Source of the DNA: Squalus acanthias
Lineage: Eukaryota
Length of the DNA: 64,000 bases
Direction of reading: 5' to 3'
NCBI GenBank assembly: GCA_030390025.1
Contig: CM059446.1
Location: 41,850,001-41,914,000 of the forward strand
The number at the start of each line of letters is the position of its first letter. Positions within the stretch are counted from its first letter, which is position 1. A program made the translations under genes and the position numbers. Below the pieces are notes generated by a model, which was not told the origin of the DNA, made no database searches, and saw only the letters and a program-made list of their open reading frames with translations. Positions 14,356 through 57,561 of this stretch are shown in pieces.

Positions 14356-14777
14356 ATTCCCAGTAAAAAAGTAAAAATTTTCCCAGTAAAAAAGTAAATT
14401 TTTTTTTAAAGCTTTTCGTTTTACATACAGGCGGTAGCTTTTGACACGTTGGAACCCCTGCGACTACACCTCATTGTCTCAGTTGTATCTTGCTATGTCT
14501 TTTGATGTGGTACCTTCCTGGCTGACTTAATTAACTTTATCACACCTCGGCAGATAGTCAGGATGATTTAATTTATTGGTCTGCAATTGTAAAGTACACA
14601 TGCTTTTTTTTCCATCTATATATGCTCTGGCGATTCTGTATCCAATTTACTTCACCTGAGGAAGGAGCGATAGCTCCGAAAGCTTGTGATTTCAAATAAA
14701 ACTGTTGGACTATAACCTGGTGTTGTGCGACCTCTCAATTTTGTCCACCCCAGTCCAACACCGGCATCTCCGCATCA
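14352..14777 (+). repeat. Upstream pseudo-LTR of the PLE
   Basis: Near-identical to 17490-17915; ends at the A of the ORF start codon. Confidence 0.93.
14652..14689 (+). ncRNA. Minimal type I hammerhead ribozyme motif (PLE family A)
   Basis: UCAC-CUGAGGA-A-GGAGC(GAUA)GCUCC-GAAA-GCUU-GUGA: catalytic boxes, stem II, stem I UCAC/GUGA and palindromic AGCU stem III. Confidence 0.85.
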
Positions 14778-17455
14778 TGACCACTATCGACACCACAAAC
14801 TGCCGGCTCAAAGTGGAGAGAATCGCCAAGAAGATCGCGCATATCGACACCGACATCAAGTATCTACAGAGATGCAAGAAAGCAGACAAGATCCCGAAAG
14901 GACTACAGATCACGAACCCACTCAAGTCGACATACAACACAGACTACGCTGAGAGACTCTGCCGTCGTACCTCTCGCACACTCCTCAACCATCTCGTACA
15001 CCAGCTCTACAGCAAACGCCACAACCTCGAAACCAAGATAGAGTCCATGCTCTCAGCCTGTGCTCAGGACACAGCAGACCAGTTACGAGACACCACCAAA
15101 CAGACGAGGCAACGGAACTACGCTGCCTACATGCGCATCAAGAACAGGAAGCTTGAGAAACTCGGCATCACCACCAGCAGCAACCAAGCCTCCCCCGGTA
15201 CCACGGCTGCAACCACAGGGAAGTCCATCGTCAACTTGTCCGACCATACCCTTCAACCAGACGAAATCGAAGTTCTCGCCCTAGGGCTCAAGTTCTGCCC
15301 AACCACCAAAATGGACCCCATCGGTCTCGCGGCAGACACGGAGGAATTCATCAGGAGAATGAGGCTCCGGGAATACTTCCACAAATCCCAAGATGTCAGC
15401 AACAAACCCAATGAGACAATCAATGATCCAGAACTGCAGACAGAGGGACTCGCAGTGCAGCAACCGAAGAAAAAAGAGTCAAACTGGACCCCTCCGGAGG
15501 GTCGCTGCCCCAAGCTTGACATGTATGCTCAAGCTGTCAGGAAATGCATCAACGCCAGATTCATCAGCCGCACTCACAAGACAGTCCAGAATGTCACCCG
15601 AGCACAACGCAACGCCATCCATGCTCTCAAGACCAACCGCAACATTGTCATCAAACCAGCGGACAAAGGAGGAGCCATCGTCATACAGAACAGAACGGAC
15701 TATTGTAAAGAAGCATACCGACAACTGGACAACCAGGAACACTACAGACAGCTACCCGCAGATCCGACCAAAGAACACACCCGCCAACTCAATAGACTGA
15801 TCAAGACCTTCGATCCAGACCTTCAAAACATCCTACGCGCTCTCATCCCACGTACTCCCCGCGTGGGAGACTTCTACTGCCTCCCAAAGATACACAAAGC
15901 CAACACACCCGGACGTCCTATCGTATCAGGCAATGGAACCCTGTGTGAGAACCTCTCTGGATACGTCGAGGGCATTCTGAAACCCATCGTACAGGGAACC
16001 CCCAGCTTCTGTCGCGACACTACAGACTTCTTACAGAAACTCAGCACCCACGGACCAGTTGAACCAGGAACACTCCTTGCCACGATGGACGTATCGGCAC
16101 TCTACACCAGTATCCCCCACGATGACGGCATCGCTGCAACAGCCTCAGTACTCAACATCAACAACAGCCAATCTCCAGACGCCATCCTACAACTCATCCG
16201 CTTCATCCTTGACCACAATGTCTTCACCTTCGACAACCATTTTTTTACCCAAACACACGGAACAGCCATGGGGACCAAATTCGCACCCCAATACGCCAAC
16301 ATCTTCATGCACAAGTTCGAGCAAGACTTCTTCGCTGCACAGGACCTCCAGCCAACGCTGTACACCAGATACATCGACGACATTTTCTTCCTTTGGACCC
16401 ATGGCGAAGGATCACTGAAAAGACTACACGATAACATAAACAAGTTCCATCCCACCATCAAACTCACCATGGACTACTCCTCAGAATCGGTCTCATTCCT
16501 GGACACACGAATCTCCATCAAAGACGGACACCTCAGCACTTCACTCTACCGCAAGCCCACGGACAACCTCACGATGCTCCACTTCTCCAGCTTCCACCCT
16601 AACCATGTTAAAGAAGCCATCCCCTATGGACAAGCCCTGCGAATACACAGGATCTGCTCAGACGAGGAGGAACACGATGGACACCTACGGACGCTGAAAA
16701 ACGCCCTCGTAAGAACGGGATATGACGCTCGACTCATCGATCGACAGTTCCGACGGGCCACAGCGAAAAATCGCATAGACCTCCTCAGAAGGCAAACACG
16801 GGACACAACCAACAGGGTACCCTACGTCGTCCAGTACTTCCCCGGAGCGGAGAAACTACGACATGTTCTTCGCAGCCTTCAACATGTCATCGATGACGAC
16901 AAACACCTCGCTAAGGCCATCCCCACGCCTCCACTACTTGCCTTCAAACAGCCGCCTAACCTCAGAAGTACCATCGTTCGCAGCAAATTACCCAGCTTTC
17001 AGGATAACAGCGACCACGACACCACACAACCCTGCCATGGCAAACTCTGCAAGACGTGCCAGATCATCAACACAGATACCACCATCACACGTGAGGACAC
17101 TACCCACCAGGTACATGGTACATACTCATGTGACTCGGCCAACGTTGTCTACCTCATACGTTGCAGGAAAGAATGCACCGCGGCATGGTACATCGGCGAG
17201 ACCATGCAGACACTGAGACAACGTATGAACGAGCACCGCGCAACAATCGCCAGGCAGGATTGTTACCTCCCAGTTGGGGAACACTTCAGCAGTCAAGGAC
17301 ATTCAGCCTCGGATCTGCGGGTAAGCGTTCTCCAAGGCAACCTTAGAAACACACGACAACGCAAAATCATCGAGCAGAAACTGATAGCCAAGTTCCGCAC
17401 TCATGAAGACGGTCTCAATCGGGATCTTGGGTTTATGTCACGATACATGACGTGA
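14777..17455 (+). CDS. Penelope-like element (Neptune-type) polyprotein: reverse transcriptase + GIY-YIG endonuclease, intact
   Basis: Uninterrupted ORF (track 14705..17455; first ATG 14777). PLE RT motifs IKPADKGG, FYCLPKIHK, PGRPIVS, ATMDVSALYTSI, GTAMG, YTRYIDDIF. CxxxxCxxC linker (CHGKLCKTC). GIY-YIG domain VVYLIRCRKEC..WYIGET..RMNEH..EHF..GH..GLN. Confidence 0.96.
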   Translation: MTTIDTTNCRLKVERIAKKIAHIDTDIKYLQRCKKADKIPKGLQITNPLKSTYNTDYAERLCRRTSRTLLNHLVHQLYSKRHNLETKIESMLSACAQDTADQLRDTTKQTRQRNYAAYMRIKNRKLEKLGITTSSNQASPGTTAATTGKSIVNLSDHTLQPDEIEVLALGLKFCPTTKMDPIGLAADTEEFIRRMRLREYFHKSQDVSNKPNETINDPELQTEGLAVQQPKKKESNWTPPEGRCPKLDMYAQAVRKCINARFISRTHKTVQNVTRAQRNAIHALKTNRNIVIKPADKGGAIVIQNRTDYCKEAYRQLDNQEHYRQLPADPTKEHTRQLNRLIKTFDPDLQNILRALIPRTPRVGDFYCLPKIHKANTPGRPIVSGNGTLCENLSGYVEGILKPIVQGTPSFCRDTTDFLQKLSTHGPVEPGTLLATMDVSALYTSIPHDDGIAATASVLNINNSQSPDAILQLIRFILDHNVFTFDNHFFTQTHGTAMGTKFAPQYANIFMHKFEQDFFAAQDLQPTLYTRYIDDIFFLWTHGEGSLKRLHDNINKFHPTIKLTMDYSSESVSFLDTRISIKDGHLSTSLYRKPTDNLTMLHFSSFHPNHVKEAIPYGQALRIHRICSDEEEHDGHLRTLKNALVRTGYDARLIDRQFRRATAKNRIDLLRRQTRDTTNRVPYVVQYFPGAEKLRHVLRSLQHVIDDDKHLAKAIPTPPLLAFKQPPNLRSTIVRSKLPSFQDNSDHDTTQPCHGKLCKTCQIINTDTTITREDTTHQVHGTYSCDSANVVYLIRCRKECTAAWYIGETMQTLRQRMNEHRATIARQDCYLPVGEHFSSQGHSASDLRVSVLQGNLRNTRQRKIIEQKLIAKFRTHEDGLNRDLGFMSRYMT

Positions 17456-17489
17456 TCCGGACTCGAGTCGTCGTTAGCTTGTTCACAGA

Positions 17490-17915
17490 TGTGATTCCCA
17501 GTAAAAAAGTAAAAATTTTCCCAGTAAAAAAGTAAAATTTTTTTTAAAGCTTTTCGTTTTACATACAGACGGTAGCTTTTGACACGTTGGAACCCCTGCG
17601 ACTACACCTCATTGTCTCAGTTGTATCTTGCTATGTCTTTTGATGTGGTACCTTCCTGGCTGACTTAATTAACTTTATCACACCTCGGCAGATAGTCAGG
17701 ATGATTTAATTTATTGGTCTGCAATTGTAAAGTACACATGCTTTTTTTTCCATCTATATATGCTCTGGCGATTCTGTATCCAATTTACTTCACCTGAGGA
17801 AGGAGCGATAGCTCCGAAAGCTTGTGATTTCAAATAAAACTGTTGGACTATAACCTGGTGTTGTGCGACCTCTCAATTTTGTCCACCCCAGTCCAACACC
17901 GGCATCTCCGCATCA
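17490..17915 (+). repeat. Downstream pseudo-LTR of the PLE
   Basis: Near-identical to 14352-14777; followed directly by the TSD. Confidence 0.93.
17790..17827 (+). ncRNA. Minimal hammerhead ribozyme motif (PLE family A)
   Basis: Identical to 14652-14689. Confidence 0.85.
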
Positions 17916-17979
17916 CAACTTTCTTTTGACATTTGTGCTGTCAGTATTCTACAGCATTGAGGTGCTGCAAACACTGACA

Positions 17980-18215
17980 ATGACTGCACAGAGGCAAAGG
18001 GCTGCACCCAAGCTCTCACATAACTCTCTCCATATGCTTATGGAGGGAGTCACAGCACACAGGGAGGTCCTCTTCCCTTCCCATATGCAGAAGAGACCTC
18101 CCCAGGAGACCAACGCAGCCTGGTTGCACATTGCAGAGGAGGACACAAGCAGGGATGTGGTCAGGAGGACCTGGGTGCAGTGCCGCAAACCTTTCAATGA
18201 TCTCAATAGATCACA
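17980..18215 (+). pseudogene. Myb/SANT-like DNA-binding domain remnant (Harbinger ORF2-type)
   Basis: RAAPKLS..L..L..GV..HREVLFP...AW.HIAEE..SRDVVRRTWVQCRKPFNDL fits the Myb/SANT-like trihelix pattern. Confidence 0.72.
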
Positions 18216-19387
18216 AAACGCTAGTACAAAGTCACACTCAACCTCATCCTGCTGTGCCTCTCATCACATCCCCATCACTCTGCCTTCCCTACCCTACTCC
18301 TGCACATCCTTACTCACACCAACTTACCTTGCACCTCCACACATCCCTCTCTATCTACATTATCACATCCCCATCTCACTAGCCACCCCTCACACTCACC
18401 CTCATCCTAGTGTAATCACACCAACTAACAACACACTTGGGTGTTTTATGCAATGTTCATGTAAAGTTTCTGTTAATGTGGTGTCAAACATTGAAACCTT
18501 TATTTTGAACACTTTGCTTTCTTGGTCAGATTTGTGTGCTTTGGAAGTGGCTTAGTGAGTTGCCGTGAATGGTGAGACAGAACGGTACCCCCTGCAATGG
18601 TGATGAGTGTGAAAGGAATGGCTTGGGCATTGTAGGGATGATTTATGGTGTTGGTGTGGGGTGGTACCAACCTGGTGCTTCATGTACAGCATCAAGTGAA
18701 GGAAATCTGGCCATGGTGAAGCCATCCCTGGCCTTCCGGGCAGCAACGTGCTCGAGTGCTGATGCTCTCTGTCCTGTGCAGCATCAGGTGATTGCGAAGA
18801 AGGTTGGTGGTGGTGTTGGTGCTGTTGGTGTGCCTGGTGTTACTGGTGTTGGGTCTGATTGTGGTGGGATTCTGAGGACCAAGGTGAGAGAGTATAAAGG
18901 GCACCCATGCTGATGAAATAGATGGCAGGTGAAGTAGAGTTGACAGAAGCGATCTGTCAATGGTGAGAGAGGTAATGAGTTCAGACTGGATGGAGACTTG
19001 TGTAAAGACTTGCAGCATGGTGAATCTGTTGTGGAAATGCAGTGAGGAAGAGCTTGTGGCTGAGGGAAGATATCTCTGTAAGGTGGGAGCTTTTACTTTA
19101 CATTTAAAGCTGTCAACTCAACAGCTGATTCAATGGCCGCTGAACTCCTGCCTCAGCTTGACAGACGTGGTCCACGACTAGCGCGGACCCCATGGGCGAG
19201 CTGTCAAATGCAGAAGGTGAGTTGAAATTCATTCTTAAGTGGCTCTAAACAAGCCACTAATTACCTGAATTGGATCCCCCGCTGTGAACCCGCCGCTGCG
19301 TGTCGGGTCTGCTCAGCGCTGACAGACCCGACATCGGGGAAGGGTGCTTGGCGGCGGGTTCACAGCGGGGTCCCGATCCGCTGGGGA

Positions 19388-19690
19388 AAAAACTAAAGGG
19401 AAGATCTGTGATAAGGTAGAAGGTAGGAGTGATTTAATGAACAGCAGAATCATTACCAGCACCTGCTGTCTGAAAAAATGGGAGCAGAGGTTATGATCTG
19501 AAATTGTTGAACTCGATATTGAGTCCGGAAGGTTGTGAAGTGCCTAATAGAAAGATGAGGTGCTGTTCCTCGAGCTTCCGTTGAGCTTCATTGGAACAGT
19601 GTAGGAGGCCGAGGTCAGAGTTGGAGTGGATCGGAGAATTAAAATGGATAGCGACCGGAAGCTCAGGGTCATGCTTATGACTGAATGGAA
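19388..19690 (-). mobile_element. PLE family B fragment: GIY-YIG C-terminus and start of 3' repeat
   Basis: Translation LPVAIHFNSPIHSNSDL..EAQRKLEEQHLIFLLGTSQPSGLNIEFNNF. Downstream sequence (aagggaagatctgtgataaggtagaagg) matches 22896-22925. Confidence 0.8.
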
Positions 19691-20011
19691 CAAGCACAAG
19701 CAGTGTTGCAAAGGCACTTACCTTCTCCCCGAAGCTGTCCTCGCCTCGCTTCAGCTGCCGGGTTTCCCGAGGCCTGGGAAACCCAGCCGGCCACTGTAAA
19801 ACCTGCAAAGCAAGTTAAATCAGAGGCTGCCAGCCTCATTAAAACAGCTGAATTGCCAACCCGCCTCCTGGGAAAGGGTTAGCTGCCCGTCCCTTGTCCT
19901 GCCACTGTTAAACCCGGAAGTAGACGGGTTGAGGTCGGGTTTCGGACTTTTAAAATTTTAATAACTGACTCGACCCCAAACCATCTGTATTTGAGTGTTA
20001 AATTTCAGCCC
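19690..20011 (-). mobile_element. Fragment of the 9037 family
   Basis: Diverged reverse complement of 9037-9340. Confidence 0.62.
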
Positions 20012-20241
20012 ATAGATTTCATTAATCATTTTGGCATAGAACTGACGAAAGGTTTTTATCACTTTTTTACATGCTTTTTTTTCTTTCCGGAGGGGCATCA
20101 TAATCAATTAGTAATTTATAAGATGCCTAGGATCTAGAATCCTTCAAGATACATCTTGCTACTAATCACACTTTGATTCATGTATGACAATATTCATTGT
20201 TTTAAGATTAATAAGTGGCCTGACATTGAGAAATGCATGTA

Positions 20242-20510
20242 CAGGAATCCCGCCCCAACCCCGGTTTTGCCATACGTGGATTTCAAGTATACACGGTTTC
20301 CTCTCTGCGACAACTTTTGCCAACCGCGGCAGTGAAACTTGTGTATACGCGGTTTTTAATTTAGGATTAAGGTAAATAACATGATTTTATTGCTTTTATA
20401 TTCTTTTTTATTGTATTATTTGAACATTTATACTGTATTTGCCAACCGCGGTTTTACTAACCACGGGGGTTTTCAGGGACGTATCCCCCGCGATTGGGGA
20501 GGGATTACTG
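20242..20510. mobile_element. Tigger/pogo-like MITE
   Basis: TA TSD; TIR caggaatcccgccccaa / ttggggagggattactg; near-identical copy at 41896-42163. Confidence 0.85.
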
Positions 20511-20861
20511 TATATAAACCTTCTTAAAAAAAACTAATAGCTTACACACATTTTCCTAATTTTGCATGACTGATTTTAGCTGTGCCTCAGTAATCTGGTG
20601 AGAGTACTTACGTGCCTCTAAAGCCACAGTGACAGCTTATTAAAGTGATTCAGTGTGGAGGTACATTGCAAACACTTGACAGTATGCATGTAAGTAAGCC
20701 TTGCTGTATGTACTGAGAGTGGAGCATGGTTTTTACATGTACTTTTGATTAGTAATTAAAAACCAAAATGAAAACAAAGAATCAAATCAGAACCGGCATT
20801 CCAGAGAGGCCAGTAAATCAGGTGCAGCTGAAGGAAACGTTGGACAACCTGACTGAACACC

Positions 20862-21058
20862 TGAAATAACAACAGAAAATGCTGGAAACTCTCAGCAGGT
20901 CAGGCAGCATCCGTGGAGAGAGGAACAGATTTAACGTTTCAGGTCTGTGACCCTTCGTCAGAACTGGAAAAAGTTAGAGATGGAACAGATTTTAAGCAGG
21001 TGCAGAGGCAGGGAAAGCGGGGAGGGGAGCAAAGAACAAAAGGGACGGTCTGTGATTT
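20862..21058 (-). mobile_element. PLE family B pLTR fragment with hammerhead motif (20929-20965)
   Basis: Diverged reverse complement of ~23130-23335; core CUGACGA-AGGGUC(ACA)GACCU-GAAA-CGUU. Confidence 0.8.
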
Positions 21059-22697
21059 GGTTCACTGAATGTATTATGGTTAACAAAAAAAGTAAACTTT
21101 TTATAACAGTCTGTAAGCTAAACTGCTAACATTTTTATTATTTAGTCATCATTGTGCAATACGTGCACATCTTTAAAACTCCTGCTGTACGCGATTTGAA
21201 TTTACTGTCCGTGTGACTTTGATTAGTATTAACAGCTTCTCAACCTGTTATTTGATTACACTGATCTTACCTGATTGTCAAATATAAACATCCGATTCTG
21301 AGTTTAAGACACTGTGGGCTAGAAATTCGTCTCGGGCAGTGGTGCAAAGCGGGCAGTATCGGATCAGCCGCCTGTTATACGCAGTTCTATTGCAGTCAAT
21401 GACGCTGAATATCAGGCGCTGTGTATAACGGGCGGCCAATCCGATACCGCCCGTGACGAATTCCTAGGCCTTTGACTACCCAGCCTCACTTGGCCCATCC
21501 GCGTGCTCTGCTTCAGTGCCTCAGAGTTGATTAATAGCCCAGACAGCGAAACAGTTCCTCACGGGACTGAACCAAGCCTTCCACAGTTCTAAAATAAAGC
21601 AGAAGCTGCCCGGGGGAAGATACCTGGAACACATAAAATTGGTGCTTCATGTCATCATGTTAATGGAATCTGATGACAGTGCCTCAAATTATACAGTTCT
21701 TTGAAAAAGGTTATGTAACAAGAGCATTTTGGATAGCAGACAACTTTCTTTGAAAAATTATTCTCTACATTCAGCATGTTTGGCATAAAATTGAACAGAT
21801 TTTAAAGCCGTCAGCTGTCTGCTGATTTTTGAGTAGGATTGGGATGTCAGGCCTGTGTCAACACAACGGATGTTTGAGAATGGAGATCTTTAGAGCTGGA
21901 TTGGGTTATCTTTCTCATGCAACGGAAATATGAATTAACACTCCCTGCCAAAAAGGTCTAACTTTTGCTAAAAGTGCATCTGATGCAGTGATTCGCACAC
22001 CTGAAATCAGATTTATCCCTGCTTTTATTGGTGAATTTGTAATCACCAGCGCCTCCGATGTATGCATAGAATTCACGCTGCCTCATGATGCAGATCCGGG
22101 TTCTGACCGTTGCAGGTAAGTAGAGACATTTTTGAAGCACTGAATTGCACACGTTTGACACATGCCAGCGTTTTTCTTTTGAAACGAATGCTAAGTAGAT
22201 GGCTGTGCTGCATCTAATTTGTATATCTGAGTTGGAGAGTGAGGAGGCTTGTCTGTGCGTGTGACATGTGCTGAGAGTTGTCAGGTGCACGTCAATTGCA
22301 GTTACTGAAAAGAGCCGAGCTCTATAATTTTAATACGACAAGTATAAATTATGCAGGCGCATTGTCGTGAAAATAGTTAACTGACGACAGGCAGGCTGTT
22401 ATTCCAACTCAAGGGTGTGCGACAGTGAAAAGATCTCAAACAATGGGCTTTGTTTTTTTATTAAAAGGTGTAATTGGAGTTCTGAATCCGTGACAGTAAT
22501 TACTGTAGAAATATTTAATGGTACTTTATCTGCAGATGATCGATACAGTGAATTTAATGTTTGAAAAGTATTTTATTATTGGTCACTCATTTTCTTCTCA
22601 GTTCTGCACATGGATTTAAGTATTATGCATGTCTATCATTTAATTAGAACAGCACAGCTTTTTGTCTTAAATTACAGTTTTCTCTTGCTTCCCTTGT

Positions 22698-22868
22698 CAT
22701 CAGCTGTGGCTCAGTGAGTAGCACTCTCTCCTCTGGGTCAGAAGGTTGTGGGTTCAAGTCCCACGCTAGAGACTTGACCACAAAAATATAGGCTGGCACT
22801 CCAGTGCAGTACTGAGGGAGTGCTGCACTGTCGGAGGTGCCATCTTTCGGATGAGCTGTTAAACCGAG
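22698..22868 (+). mobile_element. DeuSINE 5' part
   Basis: cagctgtggctcagtgagtagc..gttaaaccgagg, joined to a PLE fragment. Confidence 0.78.
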
Positions 22869-23362
22869 GAAGGGGGGAGGGGAGGAAAGATCTAAAAGGG
22901 AAGGTCTGTGATAGGATGGAAGGCAGAAGAGATTAAGAGGCAAAAGGGATGATGGTGCAAGGCAAAAGTAGATGGTAATGGGACAAGTTAAGAAACAAAA
23001 GATGACTCTAGATGAAGTGTAAATGGCAATAGCAGAGTGATCAACAGCTGCCATGTGAGAGAGAGAAAAAAAAATGAAAAAAAAGCTCTCTGTCCTCGGC
23101 CTCTTTTGTCTCTTAATCTCTCCTGCCTTCCATCCTATCACAGACCTTCCCTTTTGTTCTTTCCTCCCCTCCCCCCTCTCCCTGCCCCTGCACTTGCTTA
23201 AAAACCTGTTCCATCTCCAACTTTTTCCAGTTCTGACGAAGGGTCATCGACCTGAAACGTTGACTCTGTTTCTCTCTCCACAGATGCTGCCTGACCTGCT
23301 GAGTATCTCCAGCATTTTCTGTTTTTATTTCAGATTTCCAGCACCCGCAGTATTTTGCTTTT
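22868..23362 (+). mobile_element. PLE family B pLTR, partial inverted arm plus direct arm
   Basis: 22875-22950 is inverted relative to 23100-23180. The 3' end matches 7780-7907. Confidence 0.82.
23229..23265 (+). ncRNA. Minimal hammerhead ribozyme motif (family B)
   Basis: AGUU-CUGACGA-A-GGGUC(AUC)GACCU-GAAA-CGUU-GACU; palindromic ACGU stem III. Confidence 0.82.
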
Positions 23363-24819
23363 GAAGAAACAAAAGCTGATGGGGTGGGTGTATATTCCAC
23401 ACCCACTCAGACAGTTGGCTTGCCAGCTTCATGATAAGAGTTGTCAACACACATATATTTGCAACAGACCTCCCACCTTCAGCAGCTACACAAAAAGCAT
23501 CCTCTGGTGTCACTGGCGTGGGGGGAGATTGTGTTCTCTCTCCATTAGCAAGGCTAATGTGCACGATTCATCAGCCTTATGGATGGGGGTGGGGTAGAGA
23601 GCAGAATGTGAGTTATTCTATTTTATTTTGTTTCAGCTGCTCTAGGATTTGTACTTTAACACTCAGGACAGCTGTCTAGGGATGGGAGACCATTTCTTTT
23701 GTGTCTAATATTTATTTCTAAATCAAACTGACTAAATTAAATGCATAACCAAACAGCACAATGCCGCCTGGCAGCAGCAGGTGAGTGGTTTGTTAGTGCC
23801 TGTACTTCTGCGGACCAGATGACCCATCTTATGTTTAGACACTAGTGGTGCAATACTGCCTGAAACCAGCAAATTGTGATCTTGTGTACTTTACCACTTA
23901 CAATTTATTCCTGATGAAGCGCTTAAAGAGATTGTCCGCCAGAGTTACCAACTTATATTTTGGAGGCTAGCTTTATCAAAAGGGAATTGCCAGTGAGTGA
24001 TGGTGCGACTGAGTATCTGTGGCACTGTTACTGCTCATATTTCTTTTGGTTAAGTTTGCAAAATAGCTTTGTCAATGTGAAATAATTTGTCGGTTTTTAT
24101 TTTAGATTGCCACCAGCTGTCCCGGTTTCTGCAGACAGTGGGAATTGCGAAACGTAATGATGGTTCAAGGCTGGTCCTATTATTTTGGGGAGTGATTGCC
24201 TGAGAGGCTGCAATCTAAAGTGTGCTGTCCTCCAGACTCTACAAAGACACAATAGAGTGGGGAAGAGCATTGCAGTGAGGACAATTACAGTCGCAACAAT
24301 TCTCAACTATACTATTTTTTGAATTTTATCCAGTGCAGCGTCCGTCAGCCTATCATTATCCAATTGACGGCAATAGTGATTGAGTGAGCCACAGTGATTC
24401 AATTTTAAAATTCAGGATAAATTCATTGGATTTGTGCTACATTTTAAAAGTTATGGATAGACCTGTGAAACAATAGTGCTCTTGAAGATATTACTAACTG
24501 ACTGGCAAAGTGTTAAAGTGCTAAAACAGGATATTGTATTATAGGAACTTTGATTTATTTCAGAGAGATGTACCGACATTCTCCAAACTACAAGCAGTGC
24601 TGAATTTCACTAATCTTCCAAGGATTAAATACATATGAAGAGGTGGTTCCTCGTAGTACTCATCTTAGCCAAGCAAATACACTATCATTGTGCAGTCTGA
24701 AAAAATCAGTTCTAATTTTTTCTAAATGGATCACTCAAGACCCTGAACACCTCTAAAGAAATATGGAAATTATTTGAGATAATGACTGTTTGGCTTTAAG
24801 CATAAGATGTTCCTTAGTG

Positions 24820-31465: not shown

Positions 31466-31467
31466 TA

Positions 31468-38357: not shown

Positions 38358-39695
38358 GGGGGGATTTAAACCCCTAAAACGGGTGGGTTGGGGTCGGGTG
38401 GGAGGTTAAAGTGTTAAAAAACTGAATCCCGACCCCAAACCGCCTCCACCCCGTCCACTTCCGGTTTTAACGGAGGCGAGATGGGGGGTGGGCAGCCAAC
38501 CCACTCCCAGGAGGAGGGTCGCCCATTTAAATATTATAATGAGGCTGGTGTGCCTCAGATTTAACCACCATTACAAATTTAACGTTGGCTGGTCGGGTTT
38601 CTCAGGCATCGGGGAACCCGCCAGCTAAAATAAGGCAGGGACGCTGGATCCAGGAGGTAAATGCAAAGGCTTGAGGCCTCCGATCCCCCCCCCATGAACA
38701 ATGTTTCCCCTAAGGTGCGCGGCTGCACCAATCAGGAGGACCCGCGCAGGCCGTTCACCAGCTGCTGCCGCTGGAAAAGACACCGCGTAGCAAATTTAAA
38801 GGGACCCCGCACCAAAAAAAATTAGAGGGAACATTGCCCACGAGGTCTCCGATCCCCCCCACCAGGCCTCCGATCCCCCCACAAGGCCTCCGATCCCCCC
38901 CACCAGGCCTCCGATCCCCCCACAAGGCCTCCGATCCCCCCCACCAGGCCTCCGATCCCCCCAAAAGGCCTCCGATCCCCCCCACGAGGCCTCCGATCCC
39001 CCCCCCCACGAGGCCTCCGATCCCCCCCACGAGGCCTCCGATCCCCCCACAAGGCCTCTGATCCCCCAACAAGGCCTCCGATCCCCCCCACGAGGCCTCC
39101 GATCCCCAACACGGGGTCTCCGATCCCCCCCCACAAGGCCTCTGATCCCCCAACAAGACCTCAGATTCTCCCCACAAGGTCTCCGATCCCCCCACAAGGC
39201 CTCCGATCCCCCCTCGAGGCCTCCAATCATCTTCCTGGACTCCCCCCTCCAGCCCCGATGCTCCTCTGGCCCTGATCCTCTCCCCCCGCCCCCCCACCCC
39301 GATACTCTGGCCCCGATCCTGCCCCCCACCGAAGTTCCAGCCCTGATCCTTCCATTCCCCCCCCCCCCCCCCCCCACACCCCCCACCGCCCCCTGCCCTG
39401 ATCCTCCTCTGGTCAGCCCCGATCCTCTTTTCCCCCCCCCCACCCCCATTCCTCCTTCAGCCCCTGACCACTCCCGGCCCCCACCCGATCCTTCCCTCCC
39501 TCCTCTCTGCGGCCTAGTGCCGCAGGCCTACCCGCACGCAGCCAACCAGCCTCTCCATCTGCGGGCGAGAAACAGAGCTTTGAAATGCAAATCATCGCTG
39601 CCATTAAATTCGGCAGGACCTGCAGGAAACCCTGGTTTCTCGATCACGTTCTAGGCCCCCCACTCCCAACCCACCTCCAAATTAAAATTCCGGCC
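38358..39695 (+). mobile_element. 9037-family element with internal minisatellite
   Basis: 5' region matches 9037-9320; ends ttaaaattccggcc. Confidence 0.68.
38838..39225 (+). repeat. Minisatellite, ~20-22 bp unit aggcctccgatcccccc(c)ac(a/c/g)
   Basis: Roughly 18 tandem units visible; one more unit at ~38674. Confidence 0.95.
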
Positions 39696-47464: not shown

Positions 47465-49062
47465 ATAAGAACATAAGAATTAGGAGCAGGAGTAGGCCAT
47501 AAGGCCCCTCGAGCCTGCTCCGCCATTCAATAAGATCATGGCTGATCTTCGACCTCAACTCCACTCTCCCGCCCGATCTCCATATCCCTTGATTCCCCTA
47601 GAGTCCAAAATTCTATCGATCTCAGCCTTGAATATACTCAACGACTCAGCAGCCACAGCCCATTGGGGGAGAAAATTCCAAAGATTCACAATCCTCTGAG
47701 TGAAGAAATTCCTCCTTAAATGGCCAACCCCTTATCCTGAGACTATGCCCCCTAGATCTAGACTCTCCAGCCAGAGGAAACAACCTCTCAGCATCTACCC
47801 TCTCAGTCCCCCTCAGAACCTTATGGGGGAAAAATTCAGTATCGCCCCATTTGGGCCGCGATTATCGGCCGGGCGCAAAGATTAGCGCCTGGCGCTAATT
47901 ATCGCTTCCGACTACAAACTTGGCTTTTATCGCCCCTGGAGGTGATTGGAGCGCTAAATCAGGCGCTACACACCTGTCTTAAGGCGCAAAGGCCGAGGAG
48001 CGAGGCGCTACCTCAGAGCGCTGGCGAAGCTCATGTGATGTCAGTCAGCAATGGAACACAGACACAATGGCGCCGGCCAGTTCGTAAAGGGGAGGGTTGA
48101 TCTCGCTTTCCATCCACATCCTGCTCATTGCAGCCTTGAATCTCGGCCTGGAGAGACCTGTACATCAAATCTGCTGGAAAGAACAATGGAGAGTACCAGG
48201 CAAAGAGCTCAAAGTGCAGCCCCCACAGTCTCTTCTAAATAGATGCAAGGAAGGGCAAATCAAAATGAACCTGCAAAGTGCTGCTCAGTACCCAAAACTC
48301 CTTCACACAGCGTTGAATCTCTCCAGAAGTCTCTCTCGCTCTCTCAGAATGCGTGGTGCAAAAATGTCAACAACAAAAAAAGGCAGGAAGCGTTCGCCTT
48401 TAAATAGCGCTCCTCCAGTCCCTTCCTGACTGGAAAACGCTCCCCTCAACCTGTCGTTGATAGCGGCAGGCGGTAAGGCAGGGGGCGCCACTCAATATCC
48501 GTTCCGGGGCGCTACCAGGGCGTTGCGCACTCGACTGACGTCACGATCTGCCGGCGCAGGAGATTGTGGCGGTAGTGTTTAGCGCCGCCGCAAAATGTCT
48601 GGTCAATTTCGCGAGAGGCGCAGATATCGCCACGCCCGGGCGCTAGTTGCTTTGCGCCCCATTAACGCCCTCTTAAGGCGCTAACGGGAGGCGCAAACCA
48701 ACTGAAATTTTCCCCCATGTTTCAATGAGATCACCTCTCATTCTTCTAAACTCCAGGGAGTACAGGTCCAATCTCCTCAATCTCTCCTCATAGGACAACC
48801 CTCATCCTCGGGATCAATCTAGTGAACCTTCGTTGCACCGCCTCTAAGGCAAGTATATCCTTCCTCAGATAAAGAGATCAAAGCTGGGCACAGTACTCCA
48901 GGTGTGGTCTCACCAAAGCCCTGCAATTGTAGTAAGACTTCCTTACTCTTGCACTCCAACCTCCTTGCAATAAAGGCCAACATGCCATTTGCCTTCCTAA
49001 TTGCTTGCTGTACCTGCATGCTAACTCTCTGTGTTTCCTGTACGAGGACACCTCAATCTCTC
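47465..49062 (-). mobile_element. CR1 3' fragment interrupted by the GC-rich element at 47825-48716
   Basis: QVQQAIRKANGMLAFI..RPHLEYC; tail (ataagaac)n. Confidence 0.85.
47825..48716. mobile_element. Second copy of the ~890-bp GC-rich TIR element, again inside a CR1
   Basis: Colinear with 2266-3158; TIR gggggaaaaattcagt / actgaaattttccccc. Confidence 0.88.
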
Positions 49063-49456
49063 TGAATTGCCTTATTGTTGAGTCAAGAGTGCTCTCCAAG
49101 ACTTCCTTGAATCTCTTGCTCCACTTACTAAATTTGACTTCAAATTCAGACTCCAAAATGTTCTAGTTTTCAACTTTACACATCCGTTGCTGAATATTGA
49201 GAGGATTTTTCTCAATTGTTATACAAGGTTTGATGAATCAAGGATTCTGTATTTTCCTGCATAAGGATAAATGAAGGTACAATAATACACCGCACCACTA
49301 AAAAGGTTTGTTTCATTGTTAGAAGATCTTCCTAGAGCCTGGTTATTGTGACTTTATCCATCCATAACAGCGGTGATCAACTCAGTTGTTGTGGGAAATG
49401 TTATGCAAAATGGTGTACACCCACAGTTGGCTTTCTTGATCTACTGTAAACGGGTA

Positions 49457-49805
49457 TGGTGATGTAGTGGTTTATGTTCCTTGACTGGAAATCCTGACAA
49501 CGTGAGTTCAAGTCACACCAGGGCAGTTTGAGAATTTGAATTCAGTTAAAACAAAATCTAGAAATTAAATGCTGGTATGAAGATTATCGTAAAAACGCAA
49601 CTGCTTTACTACTGTCCTTTAGGGAAGGAAAGCTATATGTGACCCACACCAACATGGTTGACTCTTAACTAGCCACTGAAGTGGCCGAACAAGTCACTCA
49701 GTTGTATGAAGCCAGTTATATTCAGTTCAAGCCCACCACACTCTGAGGACAACTGGGTGGGCAGTGCCTTGCCAGTGACGCCCACACCCCGAGGATGAAT
49801 TTTTT
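49457..49805 (+). mobile_element. tRNA-derived SINE (same family as 7310)
   Basis: A-box tgtagtggt, B-box gagttcaagtc, tail ccttgccagtgacgcccacaccccg. Confidence 0.6.
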
Positions 49806-50197
49806 TTTAAAACCTTGACGAATTTGATCCATCTAATAGCACAACCTTTCCTTGCACGCACTCCACAACAATTACAGTGTGTAGCCATGTAATCATCCTT
49901 TTTAATAACCTCACTTATGAGAGTAGATGGATTCTCTTTCACAGCTTTCAGTTGAACTGAATTTGAACGCTCTCTGCCTTACTGTTGCGAGGGAGTTGCT
50001 TCAGCTAATGGAACGGGGACAGCAACATGGGTGGAGTCTGACTGCGACTGATTGTACTGCTGTGGGAGGTAGAACTACTGGTGAGGAGGCTGTGTGGCAG
50101 ATATCTGCAGACAGCAGTATGAAATTCCTCAGATCACAGGATCTGTTCAGTAACTACAATTTTACCTGGCAGTACAGAACATCTGTTTTTAAATGAA

Positions 50198-52921
50198 AAG
50201 TCGATGCGTAGAGGTCCTCTTTAACCGCGGTGCACAGGCCGAGGAGGACCCACGGAAGTCGGTCGGTCCAGGCGCCGTCTTGGAAGCTGGCTCGAAGAGA
50301 TGCCTTCAAGGATCTGTTGAACCGCTCACACAGTCCGTTGGCTTGGGGGTGGTACGCTGTGGTGCGGTGAATGGTCACCCCGAGATTGCGTGCGACGGCG
50401 GTCCAGAGTTCAGAGGTAAATTGCGGACCTCTGTCCGACGTCATGTCGGAGGGGACGCCGAACCGTGCGACCCAGGTGCTGACGAAGGCTCTGGCGATGT
50501 CGGCGGTGGTGGTAGAGGTCAGTGGAATTGCCTCAGGCCAGCGTGTGGTGCAGTCAACGATGGTCAGCAACTGCGTGTGGCCTTGCGACGGCGGCAGGGG
50601 CCCGACGATGTCCACGTGGATGTGGTCGAATCTCCGCGAGAGGACGGTAAACTCCTCGAGGGGTGCTTTCGTGTGTTGCTGTACCTTGGCCCGTTGGCAG
50701 GCTAGGCAGGAGTTGGCCCAAATACGCACATCCTTGCGAAGGCCGCGCCAGACAAAGCGGTTGGCTACCAATTTGATGGATGCGCGGGCGCCGGGGTGGG
50801 AGAGGTTGTGGAGAATGTCGAATACCCGGCGGCGCCAGGACGCTGGGACGACGGGCCGAGGTTCACATAGGGATATGTCGCACTTGACTGTGACTGCGGT
50901 CGGGCCACAGGCGACGTCGGCCAGGCGTAGCCCTGGTAGGTTGGTGGGTGCAGAGAGCAGATCAGGGTCGGTGATCTGGTCTGCTGCGAGTTGAGCGTAG
51001 TCGACTGCTAGGTGTGCGGCGTGGATGGCGGGGCGGGAGAGGCAGTCGGCTACCACATTGTCTCGGCCGGAGACGTGTTGGATGTCCGTGGTGAACTCGG
51101 ACACTGCCGCAAGCTGGCGCTGCTGCCTGGCGGACCAGGGGTCGATTGTCTTTGCCATTTCGAATGTCAGGGGCTTGTGGTCGACAAACGCAGTGAAGGG
51201 GTGGCCCTCAAGCAAAAACCGGAAATGGCGGACTGCCAGGAACAGCGCGAGGAGCTCGCGGTCGAAGGTGCTGTACTTGACCTCCGGGGGGCGTAGTTGG
51301 CGGCTGAAGAAGGCAAGTGGTTGCCAGGCGCCGTCGACCCACTGCTCATACACGGCGCCGACCGCGTGGTCGGAGGCATCCGTGGTGAGCGCTACCCTGG
51401 CATTGGGCCGTGGGTGCGCGAGCAGGGTGGCGTTGGCGAGCGCGGTCTTGGTGGAATCGAAGGCGGCGGACGCGTCTGCCGTCCATTCGATCGCCATCTT
51501 GCCGCTCCTGCCCCGGAGGGCTTCATACAGGGGCCTCATGAGGGACGCCGCTTTTAGGATGAAGCGGTTATAGAAATTCACCATCCCGAGGAACTCCTGG
51601 AGGCCTTTGATGGTGGTGGGGCGGGGAAATTGTTGGACGGCCTGCACCTTGGTGGGCAGGGGAATGGCCCCAGCATGGGTGATGTGGTGGCCGAGGAAGT
51701 CGATCTTGTCCAGGCCGAACTGGCATTTAGCTGGGCTGAGGATGAGCCCGTGGTCGCTGAGGCGCCCGAACAGGATGCGAAGGTGTTCGAGGTGTTCCTG
51801 CTTGGAGGAACTGGCTATCAGGATGTCATCCAGGTAGACGAACAGGCACTGTGACGCCATGTCGGCGGGTTGATGGGGGGCCATGGCGCCCAGGATGGGG
51901 GAAATGGTGTTCATGTCCACGAGGCGGTGACGAGGGATGTCTACCAGTAAGCCGTGGGCACACAGGAAATCTGCGCCGATGAGGGGGGAGAGCACCTTGG
52001 CAGTGATGAACTCCCATCGGTAGCGGTGACCAGTGAGGTCGAGGGTGACTGTCCGGGTGCCATACGTCCGGATTTCCGAGCCGTTAGCAGCAGCCAGCGC
52101 CGGTCCTCGTTCGCCCTTTTGGATGTCGAGGGCGGAGGCCGGGATGATGCTGTGCTGAGCTCCAGTGTCGCACAGAAACCGGCGGCCGGTTTTGTCATCC
52201 GTGACGAACAGCAGGGAGCCCGCGTGGCCCACGGCCATCGCGGGGGCTGGAACGGGGGCGGACTTGAAAGAGCAGGGAGGTGTGCACCATTGTGCCCTGG
52301 CGCCGAACCGTGCGTGGTAGTAACAGTGGCCCGGGTTAGTAGGGCGTGAAGGCCCCGTGGGCCTGGTGACAGGCCCTTGTGGCCGTGTGCTGGATGGTGA
52401 GGGGTGCGCCCAGGCATTGGCTGCCAGGTCCGGAGTGACGTCGCGGCTGGAGTGAGCGGACAGCAGCTTGTCGGCCTCATCGGCCAGGGCTTCCAGGTTC
52501 GTGAGGCCGGACGCCACGATCGCTGGGCGGATGCTGAGAGGGAGCTGGCGGATGAACAGCGTGCGGAAGAGGGATCCGGGTGGGCTCTCGTCGGTGAGGA
52601 GAGGAGGTCTGACGGTGAGGCATCACCGAGGCCTGGAAGGTCGAGGAGGTGGCAGTTTCGCTGATATGCCGAGGCCGTAAATTTTTTAAGGAGCGCTGTT
52701 CTGAGATGTGCGTACTTGCCTTCCTCTGGTGGGTTCTGCAGCGTTGTCCAAACCTTGGAAACTGCGGCACTACTGAGTGATGTGACGAGATAGTCGTACT
52801 TCGTCCCATCTGTGGTGATATTTCGCAGCCGGAAGCGAGATTCAGCTTGGAGAAACCAGGCTTCGGGCTGGTTTTCCCAAAACTCCAGCAGTTTCACGGA
52901 AACTGCGTTCGTGTCCGCCAT
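50198..52921 (-). pseudogene. gag-pol of the gypsy element (frameshift near 52600; most of RT deleted near 51860)
   Basis: The gag N-terminus is in ORF 51941..52921; the rest is in ORF 50154..52517. The protease region runs almost directly into YLDD. Confidence 0.88.
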
Positions 52922-52946
52922 TGCAGTGCTCGGAATACGTTCTGAG

Positions 52947-52960
52947 CGTCGGGGTCACCA
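52947..52960 (-). promoter_or_regulatory. Primer-binding site complementary to tRNA-Trp 3' end
   Basis: Minus strand TGGTGACCCCGACG, 1 nt after an LTR-like ...CAACA end. Confidence 0.85.
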
Positions 52961-52961
52961 A

Positions 52962-53235
52962 TGTTGAGGCTGCCGCGAAACACGAATGGAGGCTGAATCC
53001 ATATGTGGAAAACAAGAAACTTTTATTCACTGCATGCTATTACAAAATGGCTGCGAGAGCTGCTCCCAGAATTCTCTGGCAAAACTCCCAGAATTCTCTG
53101 GGTAAAAACTGAGGCCCCGCCCCCTTCTGCCTTAAAGGTAATGTGCCTTAAAGGGGAGGGGCTGGAAATTTGTCCACGGACGGAAAAGTGGATTATGCCC
53201 GTTTTAGGTGGCGATCCGCCACACTACCATCTACA
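52962..53235 (-). repeat. Putative 5' LTR of the gypsy element
   Basis: Ends in CA next to the PBS, with AATAAA (minus, ~53022-53027) and a candidate TGT start near 53235. The outer boundary is uncertain because there is no second LTR. Confidence 0.6.
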
Positions 53236-53324
53236 CTGGTGACACGACCTTTATCCACAGTAGCCATGCTTGTGGCCTCTCTGCAAGTTGAATAATGTAG
53301 ATTGTAATGGAATATAGATTGATA

Positions 53325-53552
53325 TTTTATGCAACGAGCGGTTAGGATTTGGAATGCACTGCCTGATAGGATGGTGGATACAGAGTCAATAGTAGCCTTC
53401 AAATGGGAATTGGATAAATACTTGAAGGAGAAAAAGTTGCAGGGATATGGGGAAAGAGCGGGGGAGTGGGACTAACTGGATTGCTCTTCGAAAGAGCCGG
53501 CGCAGACTCGATGGGCCGAGTGGCCTCCCTCTGTTCTATGGCTCTGTTCTAT
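53325..53552 (+). mobile_element. CR1 3' end
   Basis: Matches the 62660-62890 copy; tail gggccgagtggcctcc..ttctatg. Confidence 0.78.
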
Positions 53553-54889
53553 GAGACTGAATCTGATTTGAAGAAATACAGTTCAAACCCGAGAGCAATA
53601 GTTTCCTTACAGATGACGCTGGGTTTTAAGTAACTGGATTGTGGGAAATCTGGGGCGATTTTAACCCGACTCGCTCAGCAGAAACCTGGCGGGTGGGCAG
53701 TTAAAATTGTCCTGGCTCTTACCTGTCCGAAAGCTGCCACGATCGCAACATCTGCAATTTTAACCTGCTCTCCTGAGCAGGCAGCAAGGACAGGCGCCCG
53801 GAGCCAACAGGGTCCTTCTTTACATGTGGCATGTTGCTGCCCAATTACATCATTGAGACCCGACTGTAATTTTAACTCAGGCCTGAGCGGGGAATCCACC
53901 CGGAGTTAAAATTGGGGCCTATTCCTACTCCTCCTATTACTGCATTCTCACACAGGCAGCTTTTCCTGCTAGAAATTCACTAACATCCCTTTTATTTTTG
54001 CTGTTTGAAACTTTCATTTATTTTATTTTTTCGGATCTCATTGCTGAGTAGTTAGACACATTTCCTTCCAGAGGTTATGCTGGGATTTGAGCTGCCAAGA
54101 ACAAGGTGTACGTCTGTCTAAACTCACAGGTAGAACGGAGTGAGAGCGGCCTGAGTTTTTCTCCTGTCTGTGCACACCGCCGTGGGCAACTAACTGAAAA
54201 TTATGAAGCTCGCAGCGCTTTTGACAGACAGATTAGAAAGTCAGCCTCCCTTGGAACTTGAATCTATAAACCGCAGTGGCGAAGTCAGGTAAAATCATTT
54301 AAAAATCAACTCAAGTGAGCTTAAACACAACACAAATACCAATGCAAATACAATCCTGTCAGAATGAGCACTGCGCTCGATCAGTCACTGGGATCCACTC
54401 ACGGTCTTGCTGTTAAAGAAATTGCATCAAACCTTTCTCTAAAGGTCAGCGTGTGGTAGCAGCTGTTGAATGGAGTTGTTGAGTAGCCTTGGCTTCAGAG
54501 CTCGGTTAAGATGGATATAAATGAAGCAAAATTGGCACTGCTCTTGAAAATCACAGTGAAAGATAGACTCTCGGCATTCTCAGTCAGAGATTGCAAGCAC
54601 TCACATTCTCCCACTTGTGCAGGCTGACATCCTTATATAATGAGAACGGCCCCTATCCTCTGAAAACAGGATGTGTACGTCATGCCAAAAAACAGAATCT
54701 TAATGGTTTGATTGCTTACTATGAATATATATAGTGGTTCCAATTAGATCACTGGCCAGTGAGTACACACGGTTCATTCTGTAAAGGCGTTCTATGCTGT
54801 CCGAGTGCAGCACCAGCCGCTGTTCCTATTTGCAGTGGGGATGGCAGAAATTCGGTGAACTTGGTTTTTGTGCTGAAGTGCAGCGGTAA

Positions 54890-55530
54890 TGAACGTAGGA
54901 ACAGGAGCCGGCCATTCAGCCCCTCGAGCCTGTTCCGCCATCCAATTAGATCACGGATAATCTGTACCTCAACTCCATTTACCCACCTTTGCTCCATATC
55001 CTTCCCGAACAAAAATCGATCGATCTCAGTCTTGAAAATGTCAATTGGCCTCCAGCATCCAGTGTTTTGGGGCAGAGAGGTACAAGGCAAAGACGGGGAT
55101 GGAGTGAATGGAAACAGGACTGGAGCCAGTTGTTAAATTCCCAAATATTTATAGAATCATCGAATAGTACAGCACAGAAGGAGGCCCTTCAGCCTATCGA
55201 GTCTGCGCCAGCTCTTTCAAAGAGCAATCCAGTTAGTCCCACTCCTTTCCCCATATCCTGCAATTTTTTCTCCTTCAAGTATTTATCCAATTCCCTTTTG
55301 AAGGCTGCTATTGAATCTGTATCCATCACCCTATCAGGCAGTGCATTCCAAATCCTAACCACTCATTGCATAAAAAAGTTTTCCCTCTAGTTCTTTTGTC
55401 AATCACCTTAGATCTGTGCAGTCTGGTTATCGACTCTTCAGCCATTGGAAACAGTTTCTCTTTATTTACTCTTTCTAAACCCTTCATGATTTTAAACACC
55501 TCTATCGATTCTTCTCTTAGCCTTCCCTGT
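54890..55530 (-). mobile_element. Two CR1 3' fragments
   Basis: Tails at ~54890 and ~55150. Confidence 0.75.
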
Positions 55531-56267
55531 TGCCCCATTCTGGTATCGACTGTGAGAGCTTTTCAAGTGGGACCAATATGATTTTATTGAAAAGATCCTC
55601 CCTTTTCTGGGCTGTTCCAGGATTTGGCATTTTGTGTAGTTTATTTTAAGAATTTGATTTAAAGCTTTTGTCTTCATAGTAACTACCTAATTTACTTGGG
55701 AACTAACTCCCAGGGCGATTAATGATGTAAATGGAACTGACTCACTCACATCTTCAAGCTCTGATTTACGCGCGACTTTGGCAAATGACAGTGAATGGGG
55801 AGGGGAGGGGCACAGCCAGGGGGCGTTGAACCAGCACAATAAAACACAGCTAACAGTGAATGGATGGTGGAAATTGCAGAAAAATGCAAATGTGGGTGAT
55901 TAGAGCTTTCCCTGTGCCTGGAGTTTACGGCCTCTTGTTCTGCTGGCAAGGTTCATTTAACTTTATTATCAGTCAGTTTTATTGTAGTGTTTAAGGGGCT
56001 TGAAATATCAACGTGAATAATTTACTGGAATGAACTGTGTCGTGATGCATGAGGAGTTGAGGCTTCTGTGTGGCGCCTACATGGGGGGGTGGATTTAATG
56101 TTACAAAAACCACCATTTTATCTTAATTATCTCAGTCTATTCATTTAGATTTTTGAAATCCGCGAAGAAGCCACCGAAATAAAAACAAATGGTAACTATT
56201 ACTGATAGCATTAATAACAAAAAGATGTTCTCTCACTTTTATTTCTGAATTCTCTTTTTACTTAAAT

Positions 56268-56286
56268 GTCACCACCTAGTGGCAGA
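56268..56286 (-). promoter_or_regulatory. Candidate CTCF site
   Basis: Minus strand TCTGCCACTAGGTGGTGAC fits the CCACYAGRKGGY core; lies in non-repetitive sequence. Motif match only. Confidence 0.35.
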
Positions 56287-56980
56287 ACTCAGGAGCTACA
56301 CCCACGGGCAAGCACTGGGGTGGAAGGACTGCTATTTTGGTGTGCGGCGGAAGTTCTTGAGTAAAGTGGCTTATGGAATTGGTTTCCGGCACATAATGAT
56401 TGCAAGAAATAAATTGTGTCTAAATAGGACGGGCAGCATTACTCCATTGTAAATGTTCAGCTTGGTGTACTCTTCTGATTTTGGTGATTAAACAAATAGA
56501 CTGTAACTTAATAAAACATGAAATAAAACTTAACAAATTAAATTAAAATTTGATTGGCCGGCGTGATGATGCACTCCAGTCCCCGCGACGCCTTAAGCTT
56601 GGTGTAGCCCGGCTGCAGTCACAGCGCTTCATTGCCGAAAGAGCTCTAAATGATTCATGGCACGGGGATGTGGTAAACGCTACAGCCTGCTTCTATTGCA
56701 CATCAAACAGCTATAATGGAACACTTCAGCACTAACAGTGTCGGTGTCCATCTCTATTCTAGGGCTGAATTAGAGCATTCCATGTATATTTCCTGAACAA
56801 TGGATCTCACCCGACAGGCCCTGTGAGATTCCTTGGTGCCCCATATTGCTGTACCAACACAATTGTGATTGTGACAGATTCCAGCCAGAAATGCCTCAAC
56901 ACCTTGTTCTCAATGACTAAATAGACTAAAATGAGAAGTCGCACAACACCAGGTTATAGTCCAACAGATTTATTTAAAAT

Positions 56981-57016
56981 TACAAGCTTTCGGAGCTGTC
57001 GCTCCTTCTTCAGGTA
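56981..57016 (-). ncRNA. Minimal hammerhead ribozyme motif (family A variant, inverted arm)
   Basis: Reverse complement of 57526-57561. Confidence 0.82.
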
Positions 57017-57525
57017 GGGTAGCTGTGAGAGAATCTCCCAGAATTCACAATATAAACACAGGAAAAATGTATTCAAATCTTTCCCTACATCAAAGACACA
57101 CTAAGAGCACAGCCAAGACAATGAGATGTGTCCCAGGGGGTCCAACGTGTCAAAACACCTGCTGGCTGCATATCCTCTCCATTTGTGTTTGGTTCTTGTG
57201 TTAGTTTTTTTTTAAAAACCTGGAAGGACCGGCCATGATGTCAAGTCACGTTCTGTATCGTGACATGAACCCGATATCGCGATTGAGGCCATCCTCATGA
57301 GTGCGGAACTTGGCTATCAGTTTCTGCTCTATGATTTTGCGCTGTCGTGTATCCCGAAGGCCGCCTTGGAGAACGCTTACCCGCAGATCCGAGGCTGAAT
57401 GCCCCTGACTGCTGAAGTGTTCCCCGATTCTCTCACAGCTGTGTGTCTTTGATGTAGGGAAAGATTTGAATACATTTTTTCTGTGTTTATATTGTGAATT
57501 CTGGGAGATTCTCTCACAGCTACCC

Positions 57526-57561
57526 TACCTGAAGAAGGAGCGACAGCTCCGAAAGCTTGTA
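57526..57561 (+). ncRNA. Minimal hammerhead ribozyme motif (family A variant)
   Basis: UAC-CUGAAGA-A-GGAGC(GACA)GCUCC-GAAA-GCUU-GUA. Confidence 0.83.

Follow-up and report, generated by a model that had tools for sequence, protein, structure and literature searches.

A 64,000-nt stretch of the Squalus acanthias genome (assembly GCA_030390025.1, contig CM059446.1, positions 41,850,001 to 41,914,000 of the forward strand; hereafter the window) contains a Penelope-like retroelement (PLE) with a hammerhead ribozyme motif in both of its pseudo-long terminal repeats (pLTRs), and raises the question of which RNA, cut at the ribozyme or whole, is copied when such an element inserts. An earlier note on this DNA had proposed that an RNA spanning both direct pLTRs could pair its two motifs and release a unit-length, possibly circular, RNA. 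The reading that we favour, with a probability of roughly 0.55, is that the hammerhead is slow, acts in pairs and is likely aided by protein, and that new copies are likely made from read-through RNA uncut at the site. The five motifs in question are:

14652-14689, forward strand: minimal type I hammerhead, predicted cut after 14685
17790-17827, forward strand: minimal hammerhead, same sequence as 14652-14689, predicted cut after 17823
13333-13370, reverse strand: minimal hammerhead in the inverted arm of insertion A, predicted cut between 13337 and 13336
57526-57561, forward strand: minimal hammerhead of the UAC/GUA subfamily, predicted cut after 57558
56981-57016, reverse strand: minimal hammerhead of the UAC/GUA subfamily, found as a core-pattern match

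A pattern check of the window places all five at the positions and on the strands that had been reported for them, and the predicted CUU cut sites at 14685 and 17823 are indeed 3138 nt apart. The core CUGANGA ... GAAA ... UH is present in order in every copy. At 14652-14689 the parts are stem I UCAC/GUGA, CUGAGGA, an extra A, stem II GGAGC-GAUA-GCUCC, GAA, the AGCU palindrome, U17 and GUGA. H17 is U in the window copies, and in the main family, as distinct from a second repeat family described below, the G10.1-C11.1 pair is G-C and the minimal, palindromic stem III is AGCU. The earlier note described the core, stems and palindrome correctly but left out the extra A, which lies between A9 and G10.1 in 5/5 window copies. 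The two subfamilies differ as it had claimed (N7 G versus A, loop II GAUA versus GACA, stem I CAC/GUG versus UAC/GUA) and both keep CUGANGA, stem II GGAGC/GCUCC, GAAA and AGCU. Every sequence feature listed for metazoan minimal hammerhead ribozymes (min-HHRs) in the available text of Cervera and De la Pena 2014 (PMC4209133) is present, so that the assignment to the PLE minimal type I hammerheads is right.

The core pattern is matched 12 times in the window, against 4.75 +/- 2.46 expected and with 0/100 shuffles reaching 12, and genome-wide there are 111,920 matches against 770 for the reversed pattern. In an Rfam scan of the window with E up to 5, none of the 7 hits is to a hammerhead family; all seven are weak, with scores below gathering, and the best are fold-back repeats. 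When the monomer is folded, stems I and II form (z -1.9 and -1.5) but stem III is not stable. Pairing in cis is not available to the 13333 copy or to the two 57-kb copies, because each lies on the strand opposite to its neighbour. Between the subfamilies, 42/83 columns are conserved over the 80 nt upstream of the motif, 33/38 within it and 84/92 in the tail downstream of the cut. The divergence of the upstream 3' untranslated region (UTR) that had been pointed out is therefore real, but the tail, then unmentioned, is as conserved as the motif, and conservation alone consequently does not single out the hammerhead.

The motifs lie in two insertions, A and B, made up as follows (RT stands for reverse transcriptase, and ORF for open reading frame):

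13274-13287, no strand: left target-site duplication of insertion A, 10-14 bp, identical to 17916-17929; its final 4 bases are shared with the end of the element
13284-14355, reverse strand: 5'-truncated inverted arm of insertion A, a copy of 16804-17876, 99.7% identical with 3 differences
14352-14777, forward strand: left pLTR, a partial tandem copy of the 3' end, 2 differences from 17490-17915
14777-17455, forward strand: intact 892-aa ORF, RT then GIY-YIG endonuclease, ATG at +92 from the predicted cut
17490-17915, forward strand: right pLTR (3' UTR, hammerhead, tail), from repeat comparison
17873-17915, forward strand: tail separating two preferred clusters of copy ends (+50-59 and +90-99 relative to the cut; 243/301 distinct copies), putative RT start sites
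17916-17929, no strand: right target-site duplication of insertion A, identical to 13274-13287
56918-56930, no strand: left target-site duplication of insertion B, 13 bp, identical to 57651-57663
56931-57427, reverse strand: inverted arm of insertion B, truncated and of the second subfamily (tail, hammerhead, 3' UTR, last ~180 nt of the ORF), 89% identical to 17276-17455
57441-57650, forward strand: short direct arm of insertion B, a 98% inverted match to 56924-57101
57651-57663, no strand: right target-site duplication of insertion B, identical to 56918-56930

The five copies thus result from two insertion events, each within its own target-site duplication, and amount to two independent sequences only. 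In insertion A the direct arm (14352-17915) consists of a 426-nt pLTR, the ORF and the second pLTR; at 3564 nt it equals 1.14 units and crosses the predicted cut site twice. Insertion B is one truncated fold-back insertion whose two arms account for both 57-kb motifs. The ORF has the RT motifs DVSALY and YTRYIDD (PF00078, E 1e-8), a GIY-YIG domain on the C-terminal 141 aa (PF01541, E 1e-4, 22.9 bits against a cut-off of 22.6) and, at residue 753, a Cys-rich linker between RT and endonuclease, CHGKLCKTC, that fits CX2-5CxxC. Its closest named relatives are shark proteins with 80-94% identity, the homologues being returned without clade names. By these domain features the element, which is young, is an endonuclease-positive, Neptune-type PLE. 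The 3' UTR begins with an A-rich tandem duplication of ~23 nt (window 14359-14400 and 17497-17538).

Which RNA was copied can be read from the ends of the copies. The family has ~100,000 copies, with 101,841 genome-wide matches to a tail anchor. Downstream of the cut, 130 of 301 distinct copies end at +50-59, 113 at +90-99 and 15 run on into the ORF; the two preferred ends appear to be the sites at which reverse transcription starts, in agreement with a pair of internal RT starts in the Poseidon element of Anolis (PMC11167929). At 30 loci with an ORF start, some of which are units of one array, 27 arms run through the predicted cut and 3 start downstream of it. None of these 30 starts at the cut, as one separate 95-nt piece (L095) does, at 14686. 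Tail copies that lack the GAAA register number 1,792 of the 101,841. The boundaries in 97 of them (drawn from the first 100 matches in the list, with three additional units of a single tandem locus set aside) are spread from -4 to +11, with 13 at +1 against a mean of 7.4 over five neighbouring positions; 4 of these 13 are joins through self-complementary stem I microhomology, leaving 9, and the P value for an excess at +1 moves from 0.04 to 0.32 when they are removed. We estimate that copies starting at the cut make up ~0.2%, or under about 1% allowing for the filter. A pile-up of 5' ends at the cut, which we take by analogy to be the mark of ribozyme-trimmed templates of the R2 type, was found neither in the ORF-start loci nor in the 97-copy sample.

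This record is incompatible with a linear 3138-nt product as the usual insertion template. With RT apparently starting only 50-99 nt from its 5' end, a linear RNA 14686-17823 would yield only cDNAs of <100 nt and, since copies run through the cut, the proposal survives only in its circular form. The templates are, as far as the copies can tell, whole across the cut site, either uncut or cut and then re-joined. Any self-cutting is likely to be slow, or reversed by re-joining.

In the reading that we prefer, the motifs would cut after CUU only slowly, the cutting pair would be joined through the AGCU palindrome and the element's own protein would likely assist. New genomic copies would likely be made on read-through RNA still uncut at the CUU site, and the ribozyme would trim tandem or read-through transcripts as a side process, not as the step that defines the template; selection would nevertheless keep it in active lineages. 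What the sequence shows is a motif 92 nt before the start of an intact RT-endonuclease ORF, two preferred copy ends downstream of the cut, copies that cross it and stem-preserving changes between subfamilies; cleavage, dimer formation and protein assistance, and likewise a template that is linear and uncut instead of re-ligated, we infer. For PAc, the Poseidon element of Anolis carolinensis, Frangieh et al. 2024 (PMC11167929) report that cleavage by the hammerhead requires protein, that in vitro insertion is normal with a mutated core and that RNA-seq shows no ends at the cut. PAc resembles the Squalus element in that its hammerhead sits close to where the pLTR meets the ORF, its copies have two ends downstream of the cut that are separated by a few tens of bases, and its targets are AT-rich; its extension on both strands fits the inverted arms seen here. 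The present element is, however, of the Neptune type. The PAc ORF begins within the motif and reverse transcription there is initiated at +111-118 of the ORF, whereas in Squalus 92 nt separate the cut from the ATG, with which the distal copy end coincides.

Several points weigh against this reading. In the energy model the intermolecular helix of 4 bp contributes just -2.5 kcal/mol, two-copy co-folding of the 14652 motif does not give the double hammerhead as the top structure, compensatory events within the main family number only two, and the Anolis support is in vitro and from another clade. In addition, a circular template would be expected to give near-identical units with shared private variants, as found in multi-unit arrays.

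Arrays in which 2-3 full units and further partial ones follow one another head to tail lie at G000:C2 211.21-211.22 Mb, C2 175.56-175.57 Mb, C3 129.33 Mb and C1 223.72 Mb (L147-L153). Their units differ by 0-2 substitutions within an array, against 2-34 between arrays of the same subfamily. In the three arrays checked (C2a, C2b and C3) the outer ends carry a duplication of ~12 bp or more. Among 29 loci scored, variants 844C and 1150G are confined to the two units of one array, and 103T and 1657A to the three units of another; direct and inverted arms carry one haplotype. These observations, together with a direct arm of 1.14 units in insertion A that crosses the site twice, would follow if the direct motifs paired and freed a 3138-nt unit, a ligase or the ribozyme itself closed it, and RT starting from the tail went round the circle more than once, giving pLTRs and arrays, each array recorded within a single target duplication. 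That the family spreads by such rolling-circle reverse transcription of a hammerhead-cut, re-ligated RNA is nevertheless doubtful in our view. The arrays fit equally well the read-through of a source array with identical units, duplication at the DNA level after insertion, or smoothing of tandem units by the assembly, which can homogenise them. In one array a variant is present in 2/3 full units, which is unexpected from one circle, and the Anolis core mutants, as noted, insert normally. According to the available text of Craig et al. 2021 (PMC8557442), Naiads, which have no hammerhead motif, still form the same tandem and inverted structures.

The cut might instead serve to make a messenger, an uncapped RNA starting 91 nt before the ATG that licenses or tunes translation of the ORF, separately from any role in the template. 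This would suit the position of the cut, 92 nt upstream of the ATG, and the conservation of the tail between them across subfamilies (84/92), and PMC13725137 reports that in the 5' UTR of a fungal virus it is cleavage by a type I hammerhead that translation initiation needs. We consider it improbable, as the tail conservation is explained equally well by the RT start sites, and the Anolis cut lies inside the ORF, 26 nt past the start codon, so that the geometry is not general.

Whether the fold itself is under selection was addressed by covariation, which the earlier note had claimed between the two subfamilies. Within the window the claim is weak and cannot serve as proof: the five copies come from two insertions and give 4 distinct rows, and 1/11 pairs changes on both sides, a count equalled by 423/500 shuffles. 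Genome-wide it holds, and the stem I change is compensatory, as had been suggested, with 46,706 C-G, 25,062 U-A, 2,202 U·G and 455 C·A pairs, these being counts of copies and not of independent events. On a tree of 41 rows built from the last 256 nt of the ORF (insertion B was too short and was left out), the change between U-A and C-G maps to one branch (support 98/97), with one U·G row within the C-G side. A second compensatory change in the main family, C-G to U-A at the closing pair of stem II, is present in 5/50 rows and sits in a lineage that mostly has U4C.

In an alignment of 50 distinct motifs, 96.4% of cells are paired, against 27-43% for slid partners, and stem III is GC in 43 rows, CG in 6 and another sequence in 1; among the first 100 core matches listed, a count by eye gave GC or CG in 96. 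In this larger alignment 8/11 pairs change on both sides, but 33/500 shuffles reach the same count and the signal is mostly the contrast between the main and second families. Alignment A2 excluded loci picked for broken stems, and as its core columns were selected by pattern, their invariance is not evidence. Among 52 copies fetched irrespective of the hammerhead, the core is intact in 45 once U4C is allowed for, with free variation at N7 and in loop II; the remaining 7 comprise 5 junctions and 2 single substitutions. A constant core with free N7 and loop II, and a stem III palindrome and NUH site that are kept, is the constraint pattern of a catalytic core. By these comparisons it is a handful of independent events, and not thousands, that speak for the fold, and the stem-preserving changes within the family, taken with the contrast between families, argue for stems I and II genome-wide and not from the window alone.

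Besides the five motifs first reported, which are real, the window contains three more, of a second repeat family with stem I GUU/AAC, stem II GGGUC/GACCU and the palindrome ACGU:

7738-7778, reverse strand: second-family hammerhead motif, core-pattern match
20927-20967, reverse strand: second-family hammerhead motif, core-pattern match
23227-23267, forward strand: second-family hammerhead motif, core-pattern match

The second family differs from the main family in all three stems, including the change from AGCU to ACGU. Copies of its repeat occupy 7672-7907, 20853-21056, 23103-23363 and 5113-5183, and that at 7672-7877 is a fold-back and the source of weak miRNA-like Rfam hits. Elsewhere, old decayed motifs ending GAAAUAUU/C (L119, L125, L132, L133, L136, L140 and L145) have a tail that resembles that of the second family, and their endings are likely products of CpG decay of ACGU. 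Other stem III palindromes with A/T middles were considered and rejected, as they gave 80 matches against 79 for the control and many resemble CpG-decayed old copies.

The core variant U4C (CCGANGA) is present in 3,945 copies genome-wide (for example L274-L293, L088 and L102), many of them belonging to a few repeated sequence types and many with an altered closing pair in stem II. In some, the linked ORF start matches that of the window at all 301 nt, and the U4C lineage therefore looks recent. In vitro, U4C is said to lower activity considerably (PMC3088659); its amplification, like the Anolis core mutants and the Naiads, counts against a cut that insertion requires. At L183, a single case in 97, three extra A residues occupy the very site of the predicted cut, and the core there is intact.

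That the fold is kept as a non-cleaving binding or pausing signal near the RT start, or as a passenger with vestigial catalysis, would suit the amplified U4C lineages, the U at H17, the lack of a match to any curated Rfam model and the very low in vitro rates reported for min-HHRs in the accessible text of PMC4209133, but is most improbable given the core kept apart from U4C, with N7 and loop II free, in 45/52 copies chosen blind to the hammerhead, and the palindromic stem III and NUH site kept in both families.

The motif, the dimer model and the hypothesis of a unit-length circle are not new, having been published in 2014. As far as the available text of PMC4209133 goes, that study placed min-HHRs in the pLTRs of metazoan PLEs, including the fish elements Xena, Poseidon and Neptune, and described an extra nucleotide, a palindrome, pairs in tandem at a spacing of ~3 kb, pairs on opposite strands and a low, dimer-dependent activity, and proposed the circle; a review, PMC6765202, in the portion available, restates this account and also cites a 2017 paper on PLE hammerhead dimers. 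The window motifs share the extra nucleotide, the palindrome, the ~3-kb tandem spacing and the opposite-strand pairs. They differ from the min-HHRs described there in a stem II of 5 bp, in their cartilaginous-fish host, from a group that the abstract, results and discussion of that paper do not name, and in copy number, with 111,920 core matches against the 4,000-9,000 given for coelacanth and Xenopus.

A Cys-rich linker between RT and endonuclease marks the Neptune and Nematis clades in the available text of PMC8557442, and the element agrees with the Neptune clade as described there in its C-terminal GIY-YIG domain, its linker, its partial tandem with an inverted 5' copy and its optional 30-40 bp tail. 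It departs from that description in having clear 10-14 bp target duplications outside microsatellites, and the Neptune placement is by domain features. With non-LTR (LTR, long terminal repeat) retrozymes, for which circular RNA is reported, it shares type I hammerheads in tandem units (bioRxiv 10.64898/2026.07.22.740005 and PMC7229834, both from their accessible parts). Retrozymes are, however, short and non-coding, and identity with them was rejected because the 3138-nt unit has an intact 892-aa ORF; this is an autonomous 3.1-kb element for which a circle is only a hypothesis. The accessible part of the same 2026 preprint deals with PLEs and retrozymes across vertebrates, including one chondrichthyan with retrozymes. 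A literature search on Penelope, shark and ribozyme returned nothing relevant.

The window has three other features. On the reverse strand, 50154-52954 holds an LTR-retroelement pol-like frame with protease-like, RT, RNase H and integrase domains (Pfam) and an upstream overlapping frame; its RT looks incomplete. On the forward strand, 1229-3930 is a LINE-type RT frame, perhaps CR1-like, in two pieces, with PF00078 on the first, and a related copy lies near 47.8-48.6 kb. A tandem repeat with a C-rich unit of 20-21 nt occupies 38813-39274.

The motif is thus ordinary for Penelope-like elements, and what the case contributes is a further host and a very high copy number; the kind itself is known. 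The role of the hammerhead for PLEs is still open in PMC4209133, PMC11167929 and PMC8557442, as far as the available texts go, and this family is a good test bed for it, since it combines ~100,000 insertion records with an ORF that is intact, arrays that are very young and core variants of natural origin. The insertion records already show that the linear cut product is not the normal template. If the circle were nonetheless formed, the thousands of very young copies with private variants would allow multi-unit daughters to be traced to single-unit donors, and the 2014 hypothesis would be testable from sequence alone. The amplified U4C lineages are in turn a natural experiment on the amount of cleavage that the element needs.

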